Below are positions 3,928 through 52,727 of a stretch of 64,000 nt of DNA, piece by piece. The position numbers and the translations under genes were made by a program. Origin of the DNA: Candidatus Nanoarchaeia archaeon (GTDB taxonomy: Archaea; Nanobdellota; Nanobdellia; Pacearchaeales; GW2011-AR1); the NCBI GenBank assembly GCA_041501125.1, contig JBGQNO010000003.1, forward strand, positions 2,399 to 66,398, written 5' to 3'. The notes beneath the pieces were generated by a model. It was given only the letters and a program-made list of their open reading frames with translations. It did no database searches and was not told the origin of the DNA. Positions within the stretch are counted from its first letter, which is position 1. Every line of letters begins with the position of its first letter.

Positions 3928-5937
3928 ATGGAAGAAAAGAGGACAGAAGAGATTGTTCAGGATGCGCGGCGTTTCTTTGATACTTACAAGAAGGAGATTG
4001 GGCAGAATGTCAAGGATGGAAATATAGTATTCTTGAGTTTCAGCGACCTTGCTTCTGACTCGCCGAATCTTTCTGAGCTTTTGTCTGTTAATCCAGAGGA
4101 AACGCTTTCGATTTTAGAGGTCGCTATGCATGAATTCGGGCTTGTTACAAATCCAAGGATAAGGCTGACAAATATTCCTGACACATTTACAGAAAAAATC
4201 AGGAACCTCAGGGCAAAACACCTGGCAAAATTAGTGCAGGTTGACGGAATAGTAAGGCAGGCAAGTGAAGTTCGTCCGCAGGTGATTAATGCAAAGTTTG
4301 AATGTCCAAGTTGCGGGACTACTATTTCTGTTTTACAAGTTGGCTCTACGTTTAAAGAACCTTCAAGATGTTCATGTGGAAGAAGGAGGGATTTTAAGCT
4401 TGTTGGAAAAAGTATGGTTGATGTTCAAAGGCTTGTTATTGAGGAAAGCCCAGAAGCTTTGATTGGCGGAGAACAGCCAAGAAGAATCTCGGTTTTTCTT
4501 AAGGAAGATTTGGTTGAACCTAGAATGGAGGAGAAGAGCACACCTGGAAGCAAGATACGGGTTATAGGAATTCTTAAAGAAATTCCAAAAACAAACAAGA
4601 CAGGAGGCATTCTGACAAGGTATGACATTGCGATTGAGGCAAATAATGTTATTGCATTAGAGGAAACATTTGAGGAGCTAAATATTTCAGAAGAAGATGA
4701 GAGGCAGATTCATGAGCTGGCTGCTGACCCGAATGTTCTTGAAAAACTTGCATTAAGCATTGCGCCTTCGATTTATGGTTATGAAGAAGTCAAGAAAGCG
4801 CTTGTTTTGCAATTGTTTGGAGGCGTGAAAAAGATAAAAAACGATGGCACCAGGACAAGAGGGGACTTTCATTTGCTTCTTGTGGGAGATCCAGGAGTTG
4901 CAAAGTCAGTCATACTTAAATTTATCTCAGGAATTGCTCCAAAAGGAAGATATGTTGTCGGAAAGTCAGCCAGCGGTGCAGGAATCACTGCAACTGTTGT
5001 CAGGGATGAGTTCATGCGGGGCTGGAGCCTGGAAGCAGGCGCTATGGTACTGGCAAACAAGGGAATTGTCTGCATAGATGAGATGGACAAGATGGACCCT
5101 CAGGACAGAAGTGCAATGCACGAGGCAATGGAACAGCAAACAGTAACAATCAGCAAAGCAAATGTGCAAGCGACATTGAGGGCTGAAACAAGTGTGCTTG
5201 CAGCTGCAAATCCAAAACTTGGAAGATTTAATCCGTATGACACTGTTGCCAACCAGATAGACATGCCTCCTACACTTATCAACAGGTTTGATGTTATTTT
5301 TATTTTGAAAGATTTGCCTGACAGAACACGGGACGAGGCAATTGCTAACCACGTACTGATTGAGCATAAGGAATTTGGCTCGAAACTTAACATGGACTTT
5401 AACTTGTTCAGGAAGTATATTGCATATGCCAAGCAAAAGGTACAGCCGTTTTTGACTGAGGAATCTATTGCTGAGATAAAGAAATTCTATGTGGACTTGA
5501 GAAATATGCCAGTTTCAGGAGATCAGGTAATGAGACCACTGCCAATTTCTGCAAGACAGCTTGAAGCGCTGATAAGATTAAGCGAGGCAAGCGCCAGAGC
5601 AAGATTAAGCGGCCAAGTATCGAGGGAGGATGCAAAACGCGCTATTGACCTGATGAAATATTATCTGACTCAGGTTGGATATGATTATGAGACAAAAACT
5701 TTTGACATTGACAGGATATCAACTGGAATATCGTCAAGCCAACGCGGCAAGATTCTGCTTGTCAAGGACACGATTACAAGACTTGAAACAAGGCTGGGAA
5801 AACTGATTCCTGTGGAAGAGCTTTACAATGAACTTCAGGGAAAGATTGAGGCAAAGGAAGTTGACGAAACCCTTGAAAAGCTTTACATATCAGGGGATAT
5901 ATTCCATCCCAAGAAAGGGTTTGTACAGAGGATGTAA
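3928..5937 (+). CDS. mcm: MCM replicative helicase
   Basis: Zn-finger CPSCG..CSCG, Walker A GDPGVAKS, Walker B CIDEMDKM, NRFDVIF arginine-finger region, C-terminal winged-helix-like tail; 669 aa. Confidence 0.95.
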   Translation: MEEKRTEEIVQDARRFFDTYKKEIGQNVKDGNIVFLSFSDLASDSPNLSELLSVNPEETLSILEVAMHEFGLVTNPRIRLTNIPDTFTEKIRNLRAKHLAKLVQVDGIVRQASEVRPQVINAKFECPSCGTTISVLQVGSTFKEPSRCSCGRRRDFKLVGKSMVDVQRLVIEESPEALIGGEQPRRISVFLKEDLVEPRMEEKSTPGSKIRVIGILKEIPKTNKTGGILTRYDIAIEANNVIALEETFEELNISEEDERQIHELAADPNVLEKLALSIAPSIYGYEEVKKALVLQLFGGVKKIKNDGTRTRGDFHLLLVGDPGVAKSVILKFISGIAPKGRYVVGKSASGAGITATVVRDEFMRGWSLEAGAMVLANKGIVCIDEMDKMDPQDRSAMHEAMEQQTVTISKANVQATLRAETSVLAAANPKLGRFNPYDTVANQIDMPPTLINRFDVIFILKDLPDRTRDEAIANHVLIEHKEFGSKLNMDFNLFRKYIAYAKQKVQPFLTEESIAEIKKFYVDLRNMPVSGDQVMRPLPISARQLEALIRLSEASARARLSGQVSREDAKRAIDLMKYYLTQVGYDYETKTFDIDRISTGISSSQRGKILLVKDTITRLETRLGKLIPVEELYNELQGKIEAKEVDETLEKLYISGDIFHPKKGFVQRM

Positions 5938-10728: not shown

Positions 10729-11280
10729 TTAAATTATTATGATATTAGAGTTTCTTAAACTCTTTTCCCCTTCTCTTAATGCTTTTAACCTATCAATCAT
10801 AATTTCCTGTTCTGGAGTGTTGACATCATCTGCAAAACTGATTGCAAGTCCCACTCCTTTTTTCCAATCTGCTTTCCTTTTCTTCTCTAAATTCCGGACT
10901 CTTGTTAATAGGTTTCTTTGTCTGACTTCTATTATGATTTCGGTGTATGATTCTGAATACATCAATTCTTTTGATAATCTTCCTGATGCAACGTGATGGC
11001 ACATTCCACATGGCTTGCCCCATTGTTCTTCATAGAGCTTGAAAAATAAACCATCAATACAATACTCTCCCATGATTTTTTGAGGAATTATCATTTTTCT
11101 TGGCTTGTGCAAGCCTGTTTTAATAACATAATCTGTCAGAGCTTGGTCGCCAATTCTTTCAAGATTAATGGCAGCATGATAACCAAGCCATTGTCTTTTG
11201 CCTTCAAATCTGACAACCTGTTCATCAGAATAATCATCAAGATACCGACTTCTTGGAATTTTCACACTTGTTTTCGCCAT
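10729..11280 (-). CDS. Hypothetical protein
   Basis: Track ORF, 183 aa, no family recognised; stop abuts uppS stop (convergent, zero spacer). Confidence 0.35.
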   Translation of the reverse strand: MAKTSVKIPRSRYLDDYSDEQVVRFEGKRQWLGYHAAINLERIGDQALTDYVIKTGLHKPRKMIIPQKIMGEYCIDGLFFKLYEEQWGKPCGMCHHVASGRLSKELMYSESYTEIIIEVRQRNLLTRVRNLEKKRKADWKKGVGLAISFADDVNTPEQEIMIDRLKALREGEKSLRNSNIIII

Positions 11281-11329: not shown

Positions 11330-11929
11330 ATGGATAAAAAACTCAAAATCCTCGCAGCAGGCGATATTCATGGAAGTTCCAGCCTGACGAAGAAACTTGC
11401 CTTGAAGGCTGAGAGAGAGCATGTAGACTTGGTTATATTATGCGGTGATATAACCTCTCCTCTGGAAACAAAAAATTTGCTTAAACCTTTTAAGGATAAA
11501 AACCAGAAAGTCCTGCTTATTCCTGGAAATCATGATTCTTTCGCGACAATTGATTTTCTGGCAGAGCTTTATGGCATGAAAAATATTCATGGATACTCTG
11601 TTAAGTACAAGGATGTTGGAATTTTTGGAGCGGGTGGTGCCACAGGCTTTGACACCTCAGATAAAGAATTGTTTGATACACTGAAGAAAGGGCACGATGC
11701 TCTTAAGGGAACTGAAAAGAAGATTATGGTTACACATATGCATGCAAAAGATACAAAATCAGAATTCTCAGGAATTCACGGAAGCCAGGGAATAAGGATG
11801 GCTGTTGAAAAGTTCAAGCCAGAATTTCTTATACACTCGCATATTCATGAGGCTTCTGGCCTGGAAGAAAGAATTGGAAAAACCAAAGTTATTAATGTCG
11901 GAAGCGATGGGATTATTTTAGAAGTTTAA
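11330..11929 (+). CDS. Calcineurin-like metallophosphoesterase
   Basis: ILAAGDIHGS, LVILCGDI, LLIPGNHDS, THMH, SHIHE metal-ligand motif series. Confidence 0.7.
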   Translation: MDKKLKILAAGDIHGSSSLTKKLALKAEREHVDLVILCGDITSPLETKNLLKPFKDKNQKVLLIPGNHDSFATIDFLAELYGMKNIHGYSVKYKDVGIFGAGGATGFDTSDKELFDTLKKGHDALKGTEKKIMVTHMHAKDTKSEFSGIHGSQGIRMAVEKFKPEFLIHSHIHEASGLEERIGKTKVINVGSDGIILEV

Positions 11930-11933
11930 ATTA

Positions 11934-12737
11934 TTACTTTTTCTCGCAGATATTCTTGTGCACAATCCTATTGCGTCCTTGTGCTTTTGCCTGATATAAG
12001 AAGTCATCTGCCATTTTTATCATCCTTTCTTCATCATAATTGTCGCAGAATGTAACCAAGCCGATGCTTACTGTCATATTCTGGGTTGGAATTTTTTCCT
12101 CGCCTGGGAACTTGCTTGTCTCTACCAGTTTCCTGATTCTTTCGCATACTTGCAGTGCATTGTTATGCCCGGTTTCAGGGAAGACTATTATGAATTCCTC
12201 TCCGCCGTATCTTCCTACAAAATCAATGTCTCTTGTGTTTTCTTTAAACACCTTGGCGACAGCTTTCAGGAGCCAGTCTCCTCTTAAATGTCCATTAGTA
12301 TCATTGTAAATCTTGAACCTGTCCAGGTCTAACATAGCGACACTAAGCGGATGATTGAATCTTCTGGCCCTGTCTGTTTCTTTTTTCAGCCATAATGTCA
12401 TTGCTTTTCTGTTGTACAGCTCTGTAAGTTCATCAATCAGAGCGTTTCTTTTTTCAAGATAATACCAGTTAAGAAGATAGTTTATCACTATTATTGCGCT
12501 GGCAAAGAAGATTGTAACTCCAATTGTTTCTGTTAATAAAGTTGAGGATATGTGTGAAAGACTTTCAAGAATGCTGGAAGCTCCTTGCTGCAGCATACTC
12601 ACAGCCTGTCTAATTATGGATACATTTGACTGGATTAATATGTAAGCATAGATTAACAGAGCAAGGATTACTAATGCAAAAAAGAACAGCAATACCTTAT
12701 ACCATCTTTTATACTTAAGCTGCAACGGCATATACAA
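11934..12737 (-). CDS. Membrane-anchored GGDEF-domain diguanylate cyclase
   Basis: Two N-terminal TM helices then LTELYNRKAM..VAMLDLDRFKIYNDTNGHLRGD..TRDIDFVGRYGGEEFIIVF..VSIGL; GGEEF active site and RxxD (RDID) exactly 5 residues upstream. Confidence 0.85.
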   Translation of the reverse strand: MYMPLQLKYKRWYKVLLFFFALVILALLIYAYILIQSNVSIIRQAVSMLQQGASSILESLSHISSTLLTETIGVTIFFASAIIVINYLLNWYYLEKRNALIDELTELYNRKAMTLWLKKETDRARRFNHPLSVAMLDLDRFKIYNDTNGHLRGDWLLKAVAKVFKENTRDIDFVGRYGGEEFIIVFPETGHNNALQVCERIRKLVETSKFPGEEKIPTQNMTVSIGLVTFCDNYDEERMIKMADDFLYQAKAQGRNRIVHKNICEKK

Positions 12738-15214: not shown

Positions 15215-15943
15215 CTACCCGAACCATCCACTTTTATGTATTCCTGAGTTTGTTATATAGAAATTAAGCTCTTTTTCTTCGAGGCTGCGATGCTTTTTCA
15301 GAATTGCTTTGCGCTTACCTCTTTCGCTTTGCAACTCGATTAAACATTTGCTCCAGTACCTTAAGATATCTCCGCCAACCATATTAACTTCCTTGGTTTT
15401 GCCTGCCTGCATATCGTGGTCTGAAAGAAAACTGGAGTAAACCTGATTAGTAATAATGACTGGAATATCATGCTTTCTTGCTATCTCTGCAAGCATTCGC
15501 ATCTGCCTCGCGAGCCTTGAATTGATTTCATGCACCTTCTTGATGTCATCATGGCATTCTGCGAGTTCTAACCGATAGAGCATTGTCATGCCATCAACTA
15601 TAATCAGTGAGATTGATTTGTTTGCCTTAAGTTCTTTCAGAAGTTTGCCAAATGCATCCCACTGTTCTTGAAATGTTGTCGGCTTCATTAGCATAATGTT
15701 TTCCAATGCTTTTTTCCAGTCATCTGGAAGAATTTGTTTGAACCTGTCTATTGAAAATCCACCTTCTGTGTCTATGTAAATGACCTTGTTGCCTTTTTTT
15801 GCCTGGCTTGCTGTTACTAGAATGCAGAAATTTGTTTTTCCAGAACCTGCAGGGCCGTAAAGTGTTGTAATAATATCTTTTTCATAGCCGCCAAAAAGCC
15901 ACTTGTTTAAGTCGTAGCTTCCTGCAGAGATTTTTGTTTCCAT
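15215..15943 (-). CDS. radB: RadB/KaiC-like RecA-superfamily ATPase
   Basis: LFGGYEKDIITTLYGPAGSGKTNFC Walker A, LIIVDG Walker B, about 240 aa without a RadA N-terminal domain. Confidence 0.65.
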   Translation of the reverse strand: METKISAGSYDLNKWLFGGYEKDIITTLYGPAGSGKTNFCILVTASQAKKGNKVIYIDTEGGFSIDRFKQILPDDWKKALENIMLMKPTTFQEQWDAFGKLLKELKANKSISLIIVDGMTMLYRLELAECHDDIKKVHEINSRLARQMRMLAEIARKHDIPVIITNQVYSSFLSDHDMQAGKTKEVNMVGGDILRYWSKCLIELQSERGKRKAILKKHRSLEEKELNFYITNSGIHKSGWFG

Positions 15944-17156: not shown

Positions 17157-18419
17157 ATGAACAAAAACTTTTTGACTATCGGAATAGTATTGCTTATAGT
17201 TGCTGGTGTAATAGCTACAGCAGTATTGTTTCTTTTTCCTTATAAACCAAACCAACCTGCTCAAGCAAATGATACTGGTTCAACACAGCAAGGAATTCAA
17301 GAAGTAGTGAATGCCAATAACAAATTTGCATTCGAACTTTATTCTGAGTTAAACAAAGCTAGCGATAGTAATATTTTCTATTCCCCCTATAGCATTTCTT
17401 CTGCAATAGCAATGACTTATGAAGGTGCAAAAGGACAAACGGCAGATGAAATGAAATCTGTTTTTCATTTTCCAATAAGAGATATATTAAGGTCAAATTT
17501 TGCTGCAATTTATAATGATATTAACAAAGGAAATAGTGCTTATGAATTGAGAACAGGAAATGCATTGTGGGTTCAAGAAGATTATCCTTTCCTCCAAGAC
17601 TACACAAGTAGCGTGGAAAAATATTATGGTGGAAAGGCAGCAAATTTAGATTTTATCAAAGAAACAGAGAAATCAAGACAAACCATTAATAGTTTTATCG
17701 AAGAACAGACAAATAATAAAATTAAAGATTTAATTCCTTCTGGATTTCTAAATTCATTGACAAGATTAGTTCTTACAAATGCCATCTATTTTAAGGGAAC
17801 ATGGGAATGGGAATTTGATAAATCTGATACTCATGAACAAGATTTTAAAATTACTCCTACTAATGTTGTAAAAACTCCAATGATGTACTTTGACAATGAT
17901 AAAGCAAAATTCAATTACGCCGATGTGGATGGCCTTCAGATTTTAGAGCTTCCTTACAAAGGCGAAAAAATTTCAATGCTGATATTATTGCCAACAGAAA
18001 ATCTTGATGCCATAGAATCTTCTTTAACAGCAGAGAAACTAGAAGAATGGAAAAGCCAAATGAAAGAATTTAAATTAGATGCTATTTATTTGCCTAAATT
18101 TGAATTTGATGCCAAATATTTTATGAAAGATACTTTAAGTGCTATGGGAATGCCAATGGCATTTACATGGCCAGGTGCAAATTTTTCAGGTATGGATGGA
18201 ACTAATAATTTGTATATTAGCAGTGTAATTCACCAAGCTTTTATTAAAGTTGATGAAGAAGGTACAGAAGCAGCAGCCGCAGCCGCAATTGTGACGACTT
18301 TTGGTTCTGCTGGTCCTAGTAATATCTTTAGAGCAGACCACCCATTTATCTTCATAATTCAAGAAAAAGAAACAGGAAATATTTTGTTTTTAGGTAGAGT
18401 TATTGATCCTAGAGGATAA
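17157..18419 (+). CDS. Serpin with N-terminal membrane anchor
   Basis: NIFYSPYSISSAIAMTYEGAKGQTADEM, inhibitory-type hinge EEGTEAAAAAAIV, C-terminal ADHPFIFIIQE..ILFLGRV; N-terminal TM LTIGIVLLIVAGVIATAVLFLF. Confidence 0.85.
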   Translation: MNKNFLTIGIVLLIVAGVIATAVLFLFPYKPNQPAQANDTGSTQQGIQEVVNANNKFAFELYSELNKASDSNIFYSPYSISSAIAMTYEGAKGQTADEMKSVFHFPIRDILRSNFAAIYNDINKGNSAYELRTGNALWVQEDYPFLQDYTSSVEKYYGGKAANLDFIKETEKSRQTINSFIEEQTNNKIKDLIPSGFLNSLTRLVLTNAIYFKGTWEWEFDKSDTHEQDFKITPTNVVKTPMMYFDNDKAKFNYADVDGLQILELPYKGEKISMLILLPTENLDAIESSLTAEKLEEWKSQMKEFKLDAIYLPKFEFDAKYFMKDTLSAMGMPMAFTWPGANFSGMDGTNNLYISSVIHQAFIKVDEEGTEAAAAAAIVTTFGSAGPSNIFRADHPFIFIIQEKETGNILFLGRVIDPRG

Positions 18420-41870: not shown

Positions 41871-41990
41871 TGAGCCCGCGCGGATTTGAACCGCGGACCC
41901 CCGGCTTTCTTAGCATTAAGCTACAAGTTTTAGTTCTAGCGAACTAGTGTCATATAAGACCGGTGCTCTACCGAACTAAGCTACGGGCTC
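41871..41990 (-). tRNA. tRNA-Ile (anticodon UAU) with 46-nt intron at canonical 37/38 position
   Basis: Reverse complement GAGCCCG TA GCTT AGTTCGGTA GAGC A CCGGT CTTATA [46 nt] A GCCGG GGGTC CGCGG TTCAAAT CCGCG CGGGCTC A. A CTTA/TAAG 4-bp helix flanked by 3-nt bulges fits a relaxed bulge-helix-bulge. Confidence 0.8.
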
Positions 41991-49410: not shown

Positions 49411-50235
49411 ATGACAGACAATCCAGAAGAAATAAAACAAAAGATAAAAGAGCAGTTTAAAAAACTACTATCTGAAAAACCTACTTTGATTAAAGGATTA
49501 GATAATCCTGAAGCTTATGGACATGCTGCAGGAACTCCTTTAGAAGAATGGGTTAAACAAGAACTTAAAATTCATAAATGGAGAGTATACTTTCCTAATG
49601 AATTTTTAGCTGAGATTTTTAATAAAATAAAGGACATTCCGAAGATATTAATTTTCTTAAAATCATGTTGGTGGAATAGACTAATATTCACGCCAAAACA
49701 ACTTCTTGCTTTCAGGGAAGGGAAAGAAATACAAAGATGGCAACAAGAAGGGGCAGATTTGGTTTTATTTTATGGAGAAGATATTATAAAAGAGCCAAAT
49801 AAAATCATTCTTCTGAATGTTAAGTCGCATGAGTCATCAAGAGATAGCAGACCTCCAAATATCATGTCGGCACAAAGATTACTTGAATTTTTCTCTAATT
49901 TATCAGATATGAAGAATAGTGAGGAAATGCTTAAATTATCTGAGTTATGGTTTTTGGGTGGAGTTTATAGTGCTACTTCTGGTGGTGGAAAATTAGAAAG
50001 TATTACAATCAAAGATTTATTTAGATTAGATGTTTCTAAAATCCCTCAAATTAACTTTGATGCTGCTATTCAAATTCAATGGCATGTAACAGATATGATA
50101 GAAATATCTCAGACTAAGAAAAAGTTTGTAAATAGTTTAGCTGATGATTTCTTAAAAAGATGGAATCATCATTCATGCTCAAAACAAAAGAAATATGAGT
50201 CTTTGGTTAAAAAAATAAAGTCAATTACTAAATAA
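49411..50235 (+). CDS. Putative Type II restriction endonuclease
   Basis: Convergent with, and overlapping by 8 nt, an N6-adenine MTase. GADLVLFYGED..IILLNVKSHE resembles a PD..(D/E/N)xK core. No family recognised. Confidence 0.5.
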   Translation: MTDNPEEIKQKIKEQFKKLLSEKPTLIKGLDNPEAYGHAAGTPLEEWVKQELKIHKWRVYFPNEFLAEIFNKIKDIPKILIFLKSCWWNRLIFTPKQLLAFREGKEIQRWQQEGADLVLFYGEDIIKEPNKIILLNVKSHESSRDSRPPNIMSAQRLLEFFSNLSDMKNSEEMLKLSELWFLGGVYSATSGGGKLESITIKDLFRLDVSKIPQINFDAAIQIQWHVTDMIEISQTKKKFVNSLADDFLKRWNHHSCSKQKKYESLVKKIKSITK

Positions 50236-51793
50236 CTTTATATAACTTTTTTACTAATGAATTGACAATTTGTTCTTGTTTGTTATCATTTCTTATTAAG
50301 TCAGTCCTTTCTATTATCTCATTATAAAGTTTTACTTCTTCTTGGTTGTTCCAATTTATACTTCTTATTGGTATCACTGACAAAGGTTTCTCTGAGAACT
50401 CTAAAACTCCGCCACGCCTAAGACCCCGATATTTAAGCCAACTGAATATCAAATCTGAGTTTAGTATAGCCAAAAAGTATCTTAAATCCTCTTTAACATT
50501 ATTTTTCTTTACGAGCACTGTTACATCTTGGGTTATGTAGTAATCTCCTTCTACCAAAGAAAATCTGACATATTGCCGTTTATCAAATCTTTCTTTGCAT
50601 GGAACAACTATCTTATATTGGTTCTCTATAAGTTTCTTATTTCTAAGAAATACCCAGTGCCACCATGGAATATCTTTATTATAACTATATCTTTGCGTTA
50701 GTTTATCTTTATATTTTAAAAGATGCTTTTTTATATTAGGCAAAGTGTTTAAATCTTCTTCTGAGAATATGCCATCGTTTAAGTAAGCATAATAATAGAA
50801 TCCATCAGAAAAATATTTTTTAAGATTCTTAGCTTTTACAACCTCTATTAAAAAGTTTTTTTCTCTTTCTGTAAAGTTCTGAGTATCATTAATTTGAAAC
50901 GCTTTATCTAATCCACTGACCATTCCATTACCTATGTCTACAAAATCACCTAAAGTAGAATTAGCGGAACTTTCAATCTGCTTAATTAATGGCTCTATTT
51001 TAGGTGGCAGTGGTTTCCAAGGTTCTCCATCAATAAATTGTTGATGCAAGTATGACTCATAGTCGTCATTATCTACTCCTATACCCTGTTTTAATCCATT
51101 AAGCATATTGCAAATGTCATTTATTACTTTTTGGGTTATACCTTTTTTGCTCTTAACATTAATTACTTTTATTTTGTTATTTTGTTTAGTTTTAACAAAT
51201 CTAAATATTAAGATATTAGATGAAACTTTATCAAAGACTTTCATTTCCCCGAAATTAATCATGTGGGTTATTTCCCCCTCATTTGCTAATTTGTCTCTAA
51301 TTATTTTGGCATGTAAAGTTGAAGTCCAAAATGTAGGAGTGATAAATATTAATTCTCCACCATTTTCTAATAAATCAATTGAGAGCAGAATAAATGGATA
51401 GAGCAAGTCATTTAAACCATTTATTTTTGTTTTCCAATAATCATCTTCTTTCAATTTCTTTTGAGTGTCAGAATCTATATTTTTCCATCTTACATATGGC
51501 GGATTACCAATTATTACTTGAAATTTCCTGTCTGGTCTTTCAAATAAAGTGTCTTTATAACTTATTTTTACATCCGAGTTATTTTTTAAAGTATTATCTA
51601 TTTCAAAAGCAGTAATATCATCAAACTTCTTTTCTTTTAAAGATTGCAGAAAAATACCTTCCCCCGCACATGGTTCAAATATAGAAGGTTTTTTAGATTC
51701 TATTAACTCAACCATAAAATCTGTTACCTCTTTTGGAGTAAAGTATTGTCCTTTAATCTTTTTCTTTGCCATGATATATTCTAGTTTCTTCAT
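50228..51793 (-). CDS. N6-adenine DNA methyltransferase (gamma class, TaqI/Eco57I-like)
   Basis: GQYFTPKEV, motif I FEPCAGEGIF, motif IV IIGNPPYV, large C-terminal target-recognition domain. Confidence 0.85.
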   Translation of the reverse strand: MKKLEYIMAKKKIKGQYFTPKEVTDFMVELIESKKPSIFEPCAGEGIFLQSLKEKKFDDITAFEIDNTLKNNSDVKISYKDTLFERPDRKFQVIIGNPPYVRWKNIDSDTQKKLKEDDYWKTKINGLNDLLYPFILLSIDLLENGGELIFITPTFWTSTLHAKIIRDKLANEGEITHMINFGEMKVFDKVSSNILIFRFVKTKQNNKIKVINVKSKKGITQKVINDICNMLNGLKQGIGVDNDDYESYLHQQFIDGEPWKPLPPKIEPLIKQIESSANSTLGDFVDIGNGMVSGLDKAFQINDTQNFTEREKNFLIEVVKAKNLKKYFSDGFYYYAYLNDGIFSEEDLNTLPNIKKHLLKYKDKLTQRYSYNKDIPWWHWVFLRNKKLIENQYKIVVPCKERFDKRQYVRFSLVEGDYYITQDVTVLVKKNNVKEDLRYFLAILNSDLIFSWLKYRGLRRGGVLEFSEKPLSVIPIRSINWNNQEEVKLYNEIIERTDLIRNDNKQEQIVNSLVKKLYKVI

Positions 51794-51797
51794 CTTT

Positions 51798-52727
51798 TTA
51801 ATTATTTATACTGCTCAATTTAATTAATTCAAGCCATCTATTCGGAGTCTGAAATTGTAAAGAAGGTATGGCTAACTCGCTTGGAGTTTTGCCATTCAGA
51901 GATTCATGCTTTCTTATGAAATTGTAATAAACTTCCAAGCATTTCATAACTGCATAAGCACTTTCAACCGAGCCGTGCATACCTCTGAAGCCAGTTGTTC
52001 TTTGTCTGATAGAATTATGCAATCTCTCAACCCAGATGTTAAAACCCTCACCTTTGCTTTGAGTAACTATTTTATGCTGAACATTATATTTTCCAGTGTG
52101 CCTGTCATATCCAAAAGTCTTTTTTACAATATTTGTATAAGCAGGAAAGCCGTCTGTTGTAACTATCTTAATCCCATCTGCTTTGTTTTTGATGTTGGAC
52201 AATAACCTCTTTAGATTAGCTTGGCTTCTATTCTTTACATAAGCTGAATTAATCATAAATCTTGATTTAACATCTATCCCATCAATAAACCAATTCTTAT
52301 CTATTCCTCGCCTTTGCTTATGACTCTTTCGCCTGTGAAACTCCATCTCATCTACTTCTATATAACTGCCTGTCTGAAGTTTCAATTTGTCTGTAAAAGA
52401 AGCCATCTTTAAGCTAAACTTTCTAATCCATCTCAAAATAGTGCTATGGTCTGAATTATGTGGGAAGAACGCCTTAAAGTGTTCCTGAACTCCTCTTGTG
52501 CTTAATCCTCTGCAAAACAAGTCTAAGGCACAGGTTATCTTTTGAGGGCTATTTCTCATTCTAAAGAATGAGTCTTGAGGTATAAACCTTTTAGAACAGG
52601 ACTTACAAAAGTATCTTTGCCTCTTTCCATGTGCTTCTGTCTGCTTGAATCCTCGTTTAACTATCTCTTTACTTTTGCAGTGAGGACATTCTATACTCTG
52701 TATCATAATATATTCAGGTACCACCAC
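51798..52727 (-). CDS. DDE transposase with N-terminal zinc finger (IS6/IS1-like)
   Basis: CPHCKSKEIVKRG..QRYFCKSCSKRF zinc finger (as in IS1 InsA). VDEM.., TTDGFPAY, ERLHNSIRQRTTGFRGM..AYAVMKCLEVYYNFIRKHESLNGKTP resemble IS6/IS240 and IS1 catalytic regions. Confidence 0.8.
   Translation of the reverse strand: MVVPEYIMIQSIECPHCKSKEIVKRGFKQTEAHGKRQRYFCKSCSKRFIPQDSFFRMRNSPQKITCALDLFCRGLSTRGVQEHFKAFFPHNSDHSTILRWIRKFSLKMASFTDKLKLQTGSYIEVDEMEFHRRKSHKQRRGIDKNWFIDGIDVKSRFMINSAYVKNRSQANLKRLLSNIKNKADGIKIVTTDGFPAYTNIVKKTFGYDRHTGKYNVQHKIVTQSKGEGFNIWVERLHNSIRQRTTGFRGMHGSVESAYAVMKCLEVYYNFIRKHESLNGKTPSELAIPSLQFQTPNRWLELIKLSSINN

Follow-up and report, generated by a model that had tools for sequence, protein, structure and literature searches.

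The locus studied here raises the question of whether an archaeon with a very small genome encodes a working diguanylate cyclase of its own, and whether the gene belongs to the genome in which it was found. It lies in a window of 64,000 nucleotides (the whole stretch of DNA analysed) of contig JBGQNO010000003.1 from a Candidatus Nanoarchaeia archaeon. In 2018, Methanocella arvoryzae was the one archaeon for which a GGDEF protein had been accepted (PMC5847659), and to date c-di-GMP has not been detected in any archaeon (PMC13725321; 2023 review PMC10249747). Sidorov et al. (Mol Microbiol, September 2026; PMC13725321) then described GGDEF proteins in archaeal isolates and 20 further proteins from MAGs, mainly of DPANN. 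Three of the seven MAG proteins that were cloned gave evidence of cyclase activity in a riboswitch assay, positive in that one assay only and with inconsistent behaviour, while the origin, receptors and phosphodiesterases of archaeal GGDEFs were left open (PMC13725321). The use of c-di-GMP by archaea is thus unsettled, and the evidence for cyclase activity comes so far from a small number of archaeal GGDEF proteins assayed in heterologous systems (PMC13725321).

Our analysis leads us to regard the product as probably a membrane-anchored diguanylate cyclase, encoded by a native and long-resident gene of a Pacearchaeota-like archaeon (DPANN, class Nanoarchaeia). The case is solid, but it no longer comes as a surprise: archaeal cyclase genes have been in print since 2026, and the class has many of them. 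The kind of protein is already known, both from that publication and because GenBank labels members of the clade as GGDEF domain-containing proteins; none of the members, including five with GenBank accessions, is named in the main text of PMC13725321. What is new is a further archaeal GGDEF protein with a predicted, clade-specific architecture of two transmembrane helices (2TM).

Gene limits, promoter and selection

The initial annotation had placed the open reading frame at positions 11934-12737. The frame exists, but its start moves from the TTG at 12737, which we dropped, to the ATG at 12731. The latter is almost certainly the start codon, because the N-termini of all orthologues, close and distant, read MPLQLKYKR or similar, and because the homologue of 93% identity (P0001) is exactly 265 aa long. 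The position of the TATA-like TTTATAAAA (Table 1) suggests a leaderless or short-leader archaeal transcript. When the closest relative (L172; 91.7% nucleotide identity, dS 0.32) was used as the reference, dN/dS was 0.12 for the whole gene, 0.085 for the catalytic domain and 0.20 for the membrane part; the gene is kept under purifying selection.

Table 1. Coordinates, in the window, of the predicted cyclase gene, its parts and the flanking genes discussed in the text
Feature	Position	Strand	Basis and remarks
Predicted 2TM-GGDEF diguanylate cyclase gene	11934..12731	(-)	265 aa + stop codon 11934-11936; ORF listing, orthologue N-termini and lengths, Pfam and NCBIfam matches
TATA-like box TTTATAAAA	12752..12760	(-)	29 nt upstream of ATG; read from sequence
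TM helix 1, residues 13-35	12627..12695	(-)	Kyte-Doolittle up to 2.96; model helix 5-45
Extracytoplasmic short helical loop, residues 36-64 (29 residues)	12540..12626	(-)	Alignment and model (hairpin turn 46-50)
TM helix 2, residues 65-89	12465..12539	(-)	Hydropathy, alignment; single unbroken helix 51-97 in model
Helical linker YYLEKRN, 7 residues, from TM2 straight into GGDEF domain	12444..12464	(-)	Alignment and model
GGDEF catalytic domain, residues 97-255	11967..12443	(-)	PF00990; PDB phmmer; Foldseek
Metal/substrate block DLDRFKIYNDTNGHLRGD	12276..12329	(-)	Alignment to PleD; invariant in 48 orthologues
Primary inhibitory site R167-D-I-D170 (RxxD)	12222..12233	(-)	5 residues upstream of GGEEF; PleD alignment
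Active-site hairpin G176-G-E-E-F180	12192..12206	(-)	PleD alignment, orthologue alignment
Metallophosphoesterase (calcineurin-like), 199 aa, convergent neighbour	11330..11929	(+)	Pfam Metallophos 59.6 bits, all motifs intact
MCM helicase	3928-5937		Pfam; 6 kb to one side of GGDEF gene, same contig
RadB	15215-15943		Pfam; 2.5 kb to other side of GGDEF gene, same contig

The catalytic domain

The presence of a complete GGDEF domain, claimed at the outset, is confirmed. PF00990 matched over its entire length (profile positions 1-161 of 161) with 154 bits (cut-off 23.8) and TIGR00254 with 169.9 bits (cut-off 37.4), and a phmmer search of the PDB retrieved DosC (2e-34) and PleD (2.4e-30). In the alignment to PleD, the block DLDRFKIYNDTNGHLRGD contains D135 and K140, equivalent to D327 (metal) and K332, as well as the guanine-specificity residues N143 and D152 (PleD N335 and D344); PleD K442 and R446, which like K332 bind phosphate, have their counterparts in K249 and R253, and the hairpin G176GEEF180 aligns with that of PleD, in which E370 lies. 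The spacing of exactly five residues between RxxD and GGEEF is that of PleD (R359xxD362...G368GEEF), and the arginines of the secondary I-site, equivalent to PleD R390 and R313, are both present. The cyclase thus possesses what an I-site requires, namely RxxD five residues before GG(D/E)EF and the R390 equivalent. All motifs were as the initial annotation described them, and no key residue was lost on alignment with PleD or across 48 orthologues, in which all catalytic residues and R167 and D170 of the I-site are invariant at identities down to 38%.

AlphaFold2, run on the alignment of orthologues, gave a model with a mean pLDDT of 89.2 and a pTM of 0.72. The model has a long hairpin made up of helices 5-45 and 51-97, the second of which extends without a break from the outer loop across TM2 and the 7-residue linker to the GGDEF fold. 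When the model was compared with the PDB by Foldseek, the best 50 of 136 matches (E <= 0.001) were all GGDEF structures, led by active diguanylate cyclases; among the best were WspR (3bre, E 4e-18), PleD, DosC (TMt 0.88, rmsd 2.3 Å) and SiaD, and the stalk and GGDEF domain of DgcB gave TMt 0.90. Residue conservation and the model together make the protein look like a catalytically competent cyclase regulated through its I-site, in keeping with the earlier wording 'apparently functional'.

Among the closest known parallels are PleD of Caulobacter (1w25, 2v0n, 2wb4) and WspR of Pseudomonas (3bre, 3i5a), with which the archaeal protein has in common the GGDEF fold, 33-40% domain identity and all catalytic, guanine-binding, primary (RxxD) and secondary I-site residues. 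The input differs, being phosphorylatable REC domains in PleD and WspR and a 2TM helical hairpin, with no two-component partner and in an archaeal host, in the present case. A single helix leading straight into the first GGDEF motif (DxLT) is also found in DgcB (6ttr), which gave the best structural overlap with the helix included, in GCN4-WspR (3i5c) and in SiaD (7e6g); these proteins are soluble, whereas the archaeal helix continues a transmembrane segment and has only about 7 cytoplasmic linker residues.

The membrane hairpin and a proposed mode of action

Two transmembrane helices had been claimed, and hydropathy peaks agree with them (Table 1). The Lys/Arg-rich N-terminus (KYKRWYK) that precedes TM helix 1 points to an N-in topology, with the catalytic domain in the cytoplasm. 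In the alignment of 48 orthologues the outer loop shows little conservation and differs in both sequence and length, which makes a specific sensory input doubtful. The best-conserved residues outside the GGDEF domain lie at the cytoplasmic end of TM2 (Y85, Y90, L98), where the junction INYLLNWY is conserved and Y85 and Y90 are nearly invariant. We read the hairpin as a probable anchor, dimerisation module and coupling helix rather than as a specific ligand sensor. An N-terminal membrane anchor followed by a cytoplasmic GGDEF domain is also the arrangement of the bacterial 2TM cyclases DgcN/YfiN (NF007423) and GdpS (NF047872), and the NCBIfam models of both gave partial alignments with the archaeal protein (GdpS over residues 15-264, YfiN over the domain). 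The scores remained far under the equivalog cut-offs, however (105 versus 400 bits for GdpS and 97 versus 325 for YfiN), and, unlike these enzymes, the archaeal cyclase has no periplasmic PAS-like sensor or HAMP domain and an outer loop of only about 29 residues.

A mechanism in agreement with these features may be proposed. With the N-terminus in the cytoplasm, the hairpin of TM1, short outer helical loop and TM2 would anchor the protein and probably dimerise it. TM2 would pass as one helix through the linker into GGDEF and, given this continuity, the activity could be set by how the two catalytic domains are placed relative to each other at the membrane surface. As the full conservation of residues suggests, two GTP-loaded GGDEF domains would convert 2 GTP into c-di-GMP and 2 PPi. 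Binding of c-di-GMP to the invariant RxxD I-site and to the R390 and R313 equivalents would then switch the enzyme off, and such product inhibition could cap the c-di-GMP level even without a phosphodiesterase.

The gene is native to the archaeal genome

Since the GGDEF domain is overwhelmingly bacterial, the nearest non-DPANN relatives of the gene are bacterial GAF-, REC- and PilZ-GGDEFs (45-52% domain identity), and the genome was binned from a metagenome (16 contigs), one may ask whether the gene is a bacterial contaminant, the product of a chimeric assembly or a transfer so recent that it is not yet domesticated. The bin (625 kb, 88% complete) holds full-length archaeal SSU and LSU rRNA, and its estimated contamination is 0.11%. 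The gene lies in the middle of its contig between MCM and RadB, with uppS, topA and AMMECR1 as further archaeal flanks, so that the original impression of archaeal neighbours and no obvious contaminant contig was correct. Its composition is indistinguishable from that of the genome, as the tetranucleotide check advised earlier revealed: 5-kb windows with the gene correlated with the genome signature at r = 0.97-0.98, in the 80th-100th percentile of windows.

Independent assemblies of different genera display the same neighbourhood. In metagenome contigs whose GGDEF proteins are 53-68% identical to ours, the gene order is AMMECR1-radB-topA, a divergent GGDEF gene, 0-5 variable genes and metallophosphoesterase-uppS-serS; in another five genera, at about 40% identity, serS and the orthologue lie tail-to-tail. 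The full-length homologues come from sources named Candidatus Pacearchaeota, Woesearchaeota or Nanoarchaeia archaeon, the clade to which the gene belongs is made up solely of sequences of this archaeal class, and the dN/dS of 0.12 likewise speaks against a foreign or undomesticated gene. We therefore leave next to no probability to contamination, chimerism or very recent transfer; a contaminant or chimera is excluded by composition, archaeal flanks, synteny and clade membership. The gene is native to the archaeal genome.

Distribution and origin of GGDEF genes in the lineage

The view that GGDEF domains are very rare in Archaea, on which the interest of the locus had been based, does not hold for this lineage, as archaeal cyclases have been published (PMC13725321) and the domain proved widespread. 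Matches above the Pfam cut-off were obtained in 68 of 201 genomes of the same GTDB family (34%), in 64 of its 191 genera and in 16 of its 41 high-quality genomes. In a sample of the phylum comprising 401 genomes at least 90% complete, searched at E <= 1e-10, all matches fell in one class, with GGDEF in 184 of the 401 genomes (46%), in 149 of 281 genera and in dozens of families. Up to four copies occur per genome of the class, and many of the ORFs are multidomain (300-700 aa); the source genome has one GGDEF gene.

The proteins of Sidorov et al. resemble the present one in having an intact GG(D/E)EF and genes flanked by unambiguously archaeal ones, for the most part in MAGs of DPANN; many are short, with little beyond the GGDEF domain, none carries the Hypr serine, as here, and modelling gave folds that match those of PleD, 3IGN and similar structures (PMC13725321). 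The difference is that archaeal GGDEFs were called sporadic and not multi-copy in that work, whereas we find them in 46% of the class genomes and in up to four copies.

Two other arrangements of GGDEF genes were seen in the family. In some close relatives (L045 6842-7615 and L047 6852-7628) a tandem second GGDEF paralogue of 257-271 aa directly follows the 2TM orthologue; this paralogue (e.g. P0018) retains TM2 and the same TM2-GGDEF junction, and the source genome is single-copy. A distinct short GGDEF of about 190-230 aa, which is essentially the domain alone (L007, L016, L019, L030, L035, L036, L038, L039), is the commonest type in the family; it is usually found at other loci and is absent from the source genome.

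Whether the gene came from a bacterial donor or represents an archaeal clade had been posed as a question for phylogeny. Two trees of the GGDEF domain, one of 261 rows and one of 107 rows under LG+C20 (PMSF), agree; the bacterial reference set came from a wide scan for related loci, which gave at least 600 loci, all of them bacterial among the matches listed. The 2TM subclade, composed of our protein, family members and metagenome homologues, has support of 100/94, and its sister group consists of multidomain GGDEFs (340-520 aa) that belong to five or more other families of the class. The two unite in an all-archaeal clade (98/98) of at least seven GTDB families, which sits inside a bacterial group of GAF-, REC- and PilZ-linked GGDEFs (92/87). 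Nesting among bacterial sequences, one half of what had been named as counting against a native gene, is thus real, but it takes the form of an old, all-archaeal clade, and the other half, a chimera, has left no sign. The short type of the family (~200 aa) forms its own clade (100/99), and the remaining copies of the class fall in further clades, some of them sister to single bacterial sequences (L049 and a sequence of Bdellovibrionia, 99/90).

A common archaeal origin of all these proteins, a possibility raised in PMC13725321, would be in line with the wide occurrence of GGDEF in the class and with the span of at least seven GTDB families in the query clade; an ancestor shared by the 2TM and short types is also possible, as a tree that unites the 2TM-containing clade and the short type was not rejected (AU p = 0.11). 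Against it stand the scattering of archaeal GGDEFs among bacterial ones, of which the Bdellovibrionia pairing is an example, and the position of the query clade within the bacterial GAF/REC/PilZ-GGDEF group. A single clade for all 59 archaeal rows was rejected (AU p = 0.018, dlnL 88), in a tree whose deep nodes are weak because the domain is short (alignment of ~165 columns). We consider a common archaeal origin very improbable. The simplest reading of the trees would be that GGDEF passed from bacteria to archaea several times and that on at least one occasion, long ago, a bacterial-type GGDEF entered Nanoarchaeia; thereafter the genes would have been inherited vertically, with domains shuffled and copies often lost. 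The significance of these results extends beyond one gene: GGDEF is common, not sporadic, in Nanoarchaeia, and the archaeal copies appear to be of more than one origin.

Canonical partners of c-di-GMP signalling

A search of the genome for EAL, HD-GYP and PilZ domains, suggested with the first description of the gene, was run and found none. In the source genome (88% complete), profile searches returned no EAL and no HD_5 match, and an HD-GYP profile made from the class's own sequences had no match at E <= 10; PilZ was absent from the source genome and from all 201 family genomes, and Rfam scans for c-di-GMP riboswitches (GEMM-I/II) found none on any of the 16 contigs. The receptor search covered PilZ and riboswitches; the ComFB family, another candidate receptor, has been reported in just two archaea, neither of them DPANN. 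The cyclase is an orphan in the sense that its genome yielded no EAL, HD-GYP, PilZ or c-di-GMP riboswitch; a partner could still be encoded in the 12% of the genome that the bin lacks.

At the level of the family, HD_5/HD-GYP was found in 16 of 201 genomes, none of which is among the eight with a 2TM-type orthologue, and its association with GGDEF was borderline (9/16 versus 59/185 genomes GGDEF-positive, p=0.057). EAL was assessed in about 10 family genomes that formed part of the class sample. In this sample of 251 genomes the canonical partners were far less frequent than GGDEF, with HD-GYP in 44, EAL in 7 and PilZ in 4. Other families of the class encode fusions of GGDEF with HD-GYP (632 aa, G240:C3:44413-45384, L082) and with EAL (725 aa, G313:C58:7007-8227, L077), which indicates that bona fide architectures for c-di-GMP turnover do occur in DPANN archaea.

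The adjacent metallophosphoesterase

The calcineurin-like phosphoesterase that had been reported to end 4 nt away on the opposite strand does so: the ORF listing places its end 4 nt from the stop codon of the GGDEF gene. Some enzymes of the metallophosphoesterase superfamily hydrolyse cyclic nucleotides, and the speculation that this one might be such a hydrolase could be extended to a make-and-break pair, in which it would degrade the c-di-GMP or pGpG stemming from the cyclase. The narrow gap, the same arrangement in the closest relative (L172), the intact motifs and the lack of EAL and HD-GYP matches in the genome would all fit such a pair. Nevertheless, the two genes are convergent and hence not co-transcribed. 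Homologues of the phosphoesterase (48-79% identity) are present as a single copy in 181 of the 201 family genomes, irrespective of the cyclase (62 of 68 genomes with GGDEF versus 119 of 133 without it; Fisher p=0.81). In relatives, moreover, it keeps its place beside uppS-serS, with 0-5 unrelated genes (e.g. AAA_28) between it and GGDEF; the two genes abut here because these intervening genes are absent. A sequence search of the PDB with the phosphoesterase gave no match. Co-occurrence and synteny led us to reject it as a partner, leaving only a slight chance for a cognate hydrolase; the phosphoesterase is a family-wide, near-core gene and no specific partner of the cyclase.

An ORF of 183 aa (10729-11280, (-)) without a Pfam or NCBIfam match separates uppS from the phosphoesterase in the window, and one relative (L041) has an unannotated ORF of 193 aa at the matching position.

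Possible function of the protein

A separate problem is whether the protein makes c-di-GMP in vivo at all. It might synthesise another nucleotide, as cGAMP-type 'Hypr' enzymes do, or be a silent scaffold or a c-di-GMP sensor acting through its I-site, for example one that detects c-di-GMP of bacterial neighbours or hosts. The absence of the canonical receptor and phosphodiesterase from the PilZ, EAL and HD-GYP searches would be understandable in that case, and some archaeal GGDEFs were found to cause catalysis-independent phenotypes in Salmonella (PMC13725321). The clade also has an unusual Arg in its GHLRGD motif, where most GGDEFs have Ala. On the other hand, the guanine-specificity Asp D152 (PleD D344) is kept in 48 of 48 orthologues, with no Ser of the Hypr kind, and a full catalytic set that stays invariant over deep divergence would not be needed by a pure scaffold or sensor. 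We consider a protein that is no c-di-GMP synthase unlikely, and return to the diguanylate cyclase as the probable reading.

If c-di-GMP is made, its output would most likely pass through a non-canonical receptor controlling surface or attachment functions, which is a speculative proposal. In the Pacearchaeota-like family the putative synthase is kept, and those canonical readers and erasers that were searched for are lacking or rare: PilZ was found in 0 of 201 genomes and HD-GYP in almost none, and neither EAL nor the riboswitch was found in searches that covered about ten family genomes for EAL and the source genome for the riboswitch. A possible, if on balance doubtful, view of the whole family is that it keeps a product-inhibited synthase whose c-di-GMP is read by a novel archaeal receptor and removed without a canonical phosphodiesterase, or whose c-di-GMP acts in trans on the bacterial network of a partner. 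Delivery to, or sensing by, a partner cell is conceivable, as such cells live attached to other microbes. Either case, a novel receptor or action in trans, would constitute a new mode of c-di-GMP signalling. The cyclase is a clean and small object for testing whether an archaeon uses c-di-GMP, with 265 aa, all catalytic and allosteric residues, a native and selected gene and a host genome of about 0.6-0.7 Mb. As a screen would need to cover only about 650 genes, the lineage is also a good one in which to look for a non-canonical c-di-GMP receptor.

Other features of the window and genome

Several further features were encountered. At 17157-18419 (+), 4.4 kb from the GGDEF gene, lies the gene of a full-length serpin, a serine protease inhibitor with a Pfam match of 407 bits, which is an unusual cargo for an archaeal genome of 0.6 Mb. 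On another contig of the same genome (C8; L201 8510-8866 (-)), a group I catalytic intron (RF00028) was detected inside the archaeal 23S rRNA gene, with a match of 51 bits, just above the gathering score. A tRNA match at 41871-41990 (-) of the window spans 120 nt, versus about 72 nt expected, and probably contains an intron; similarly long tRNA matches are present on other contigs (L185 19248-19375, L201 6280-6415). Finally, at 50001-52000 of the window the GC content dips to 0.29, versus about 0.37 in the rest, and the GC skew is reversed.
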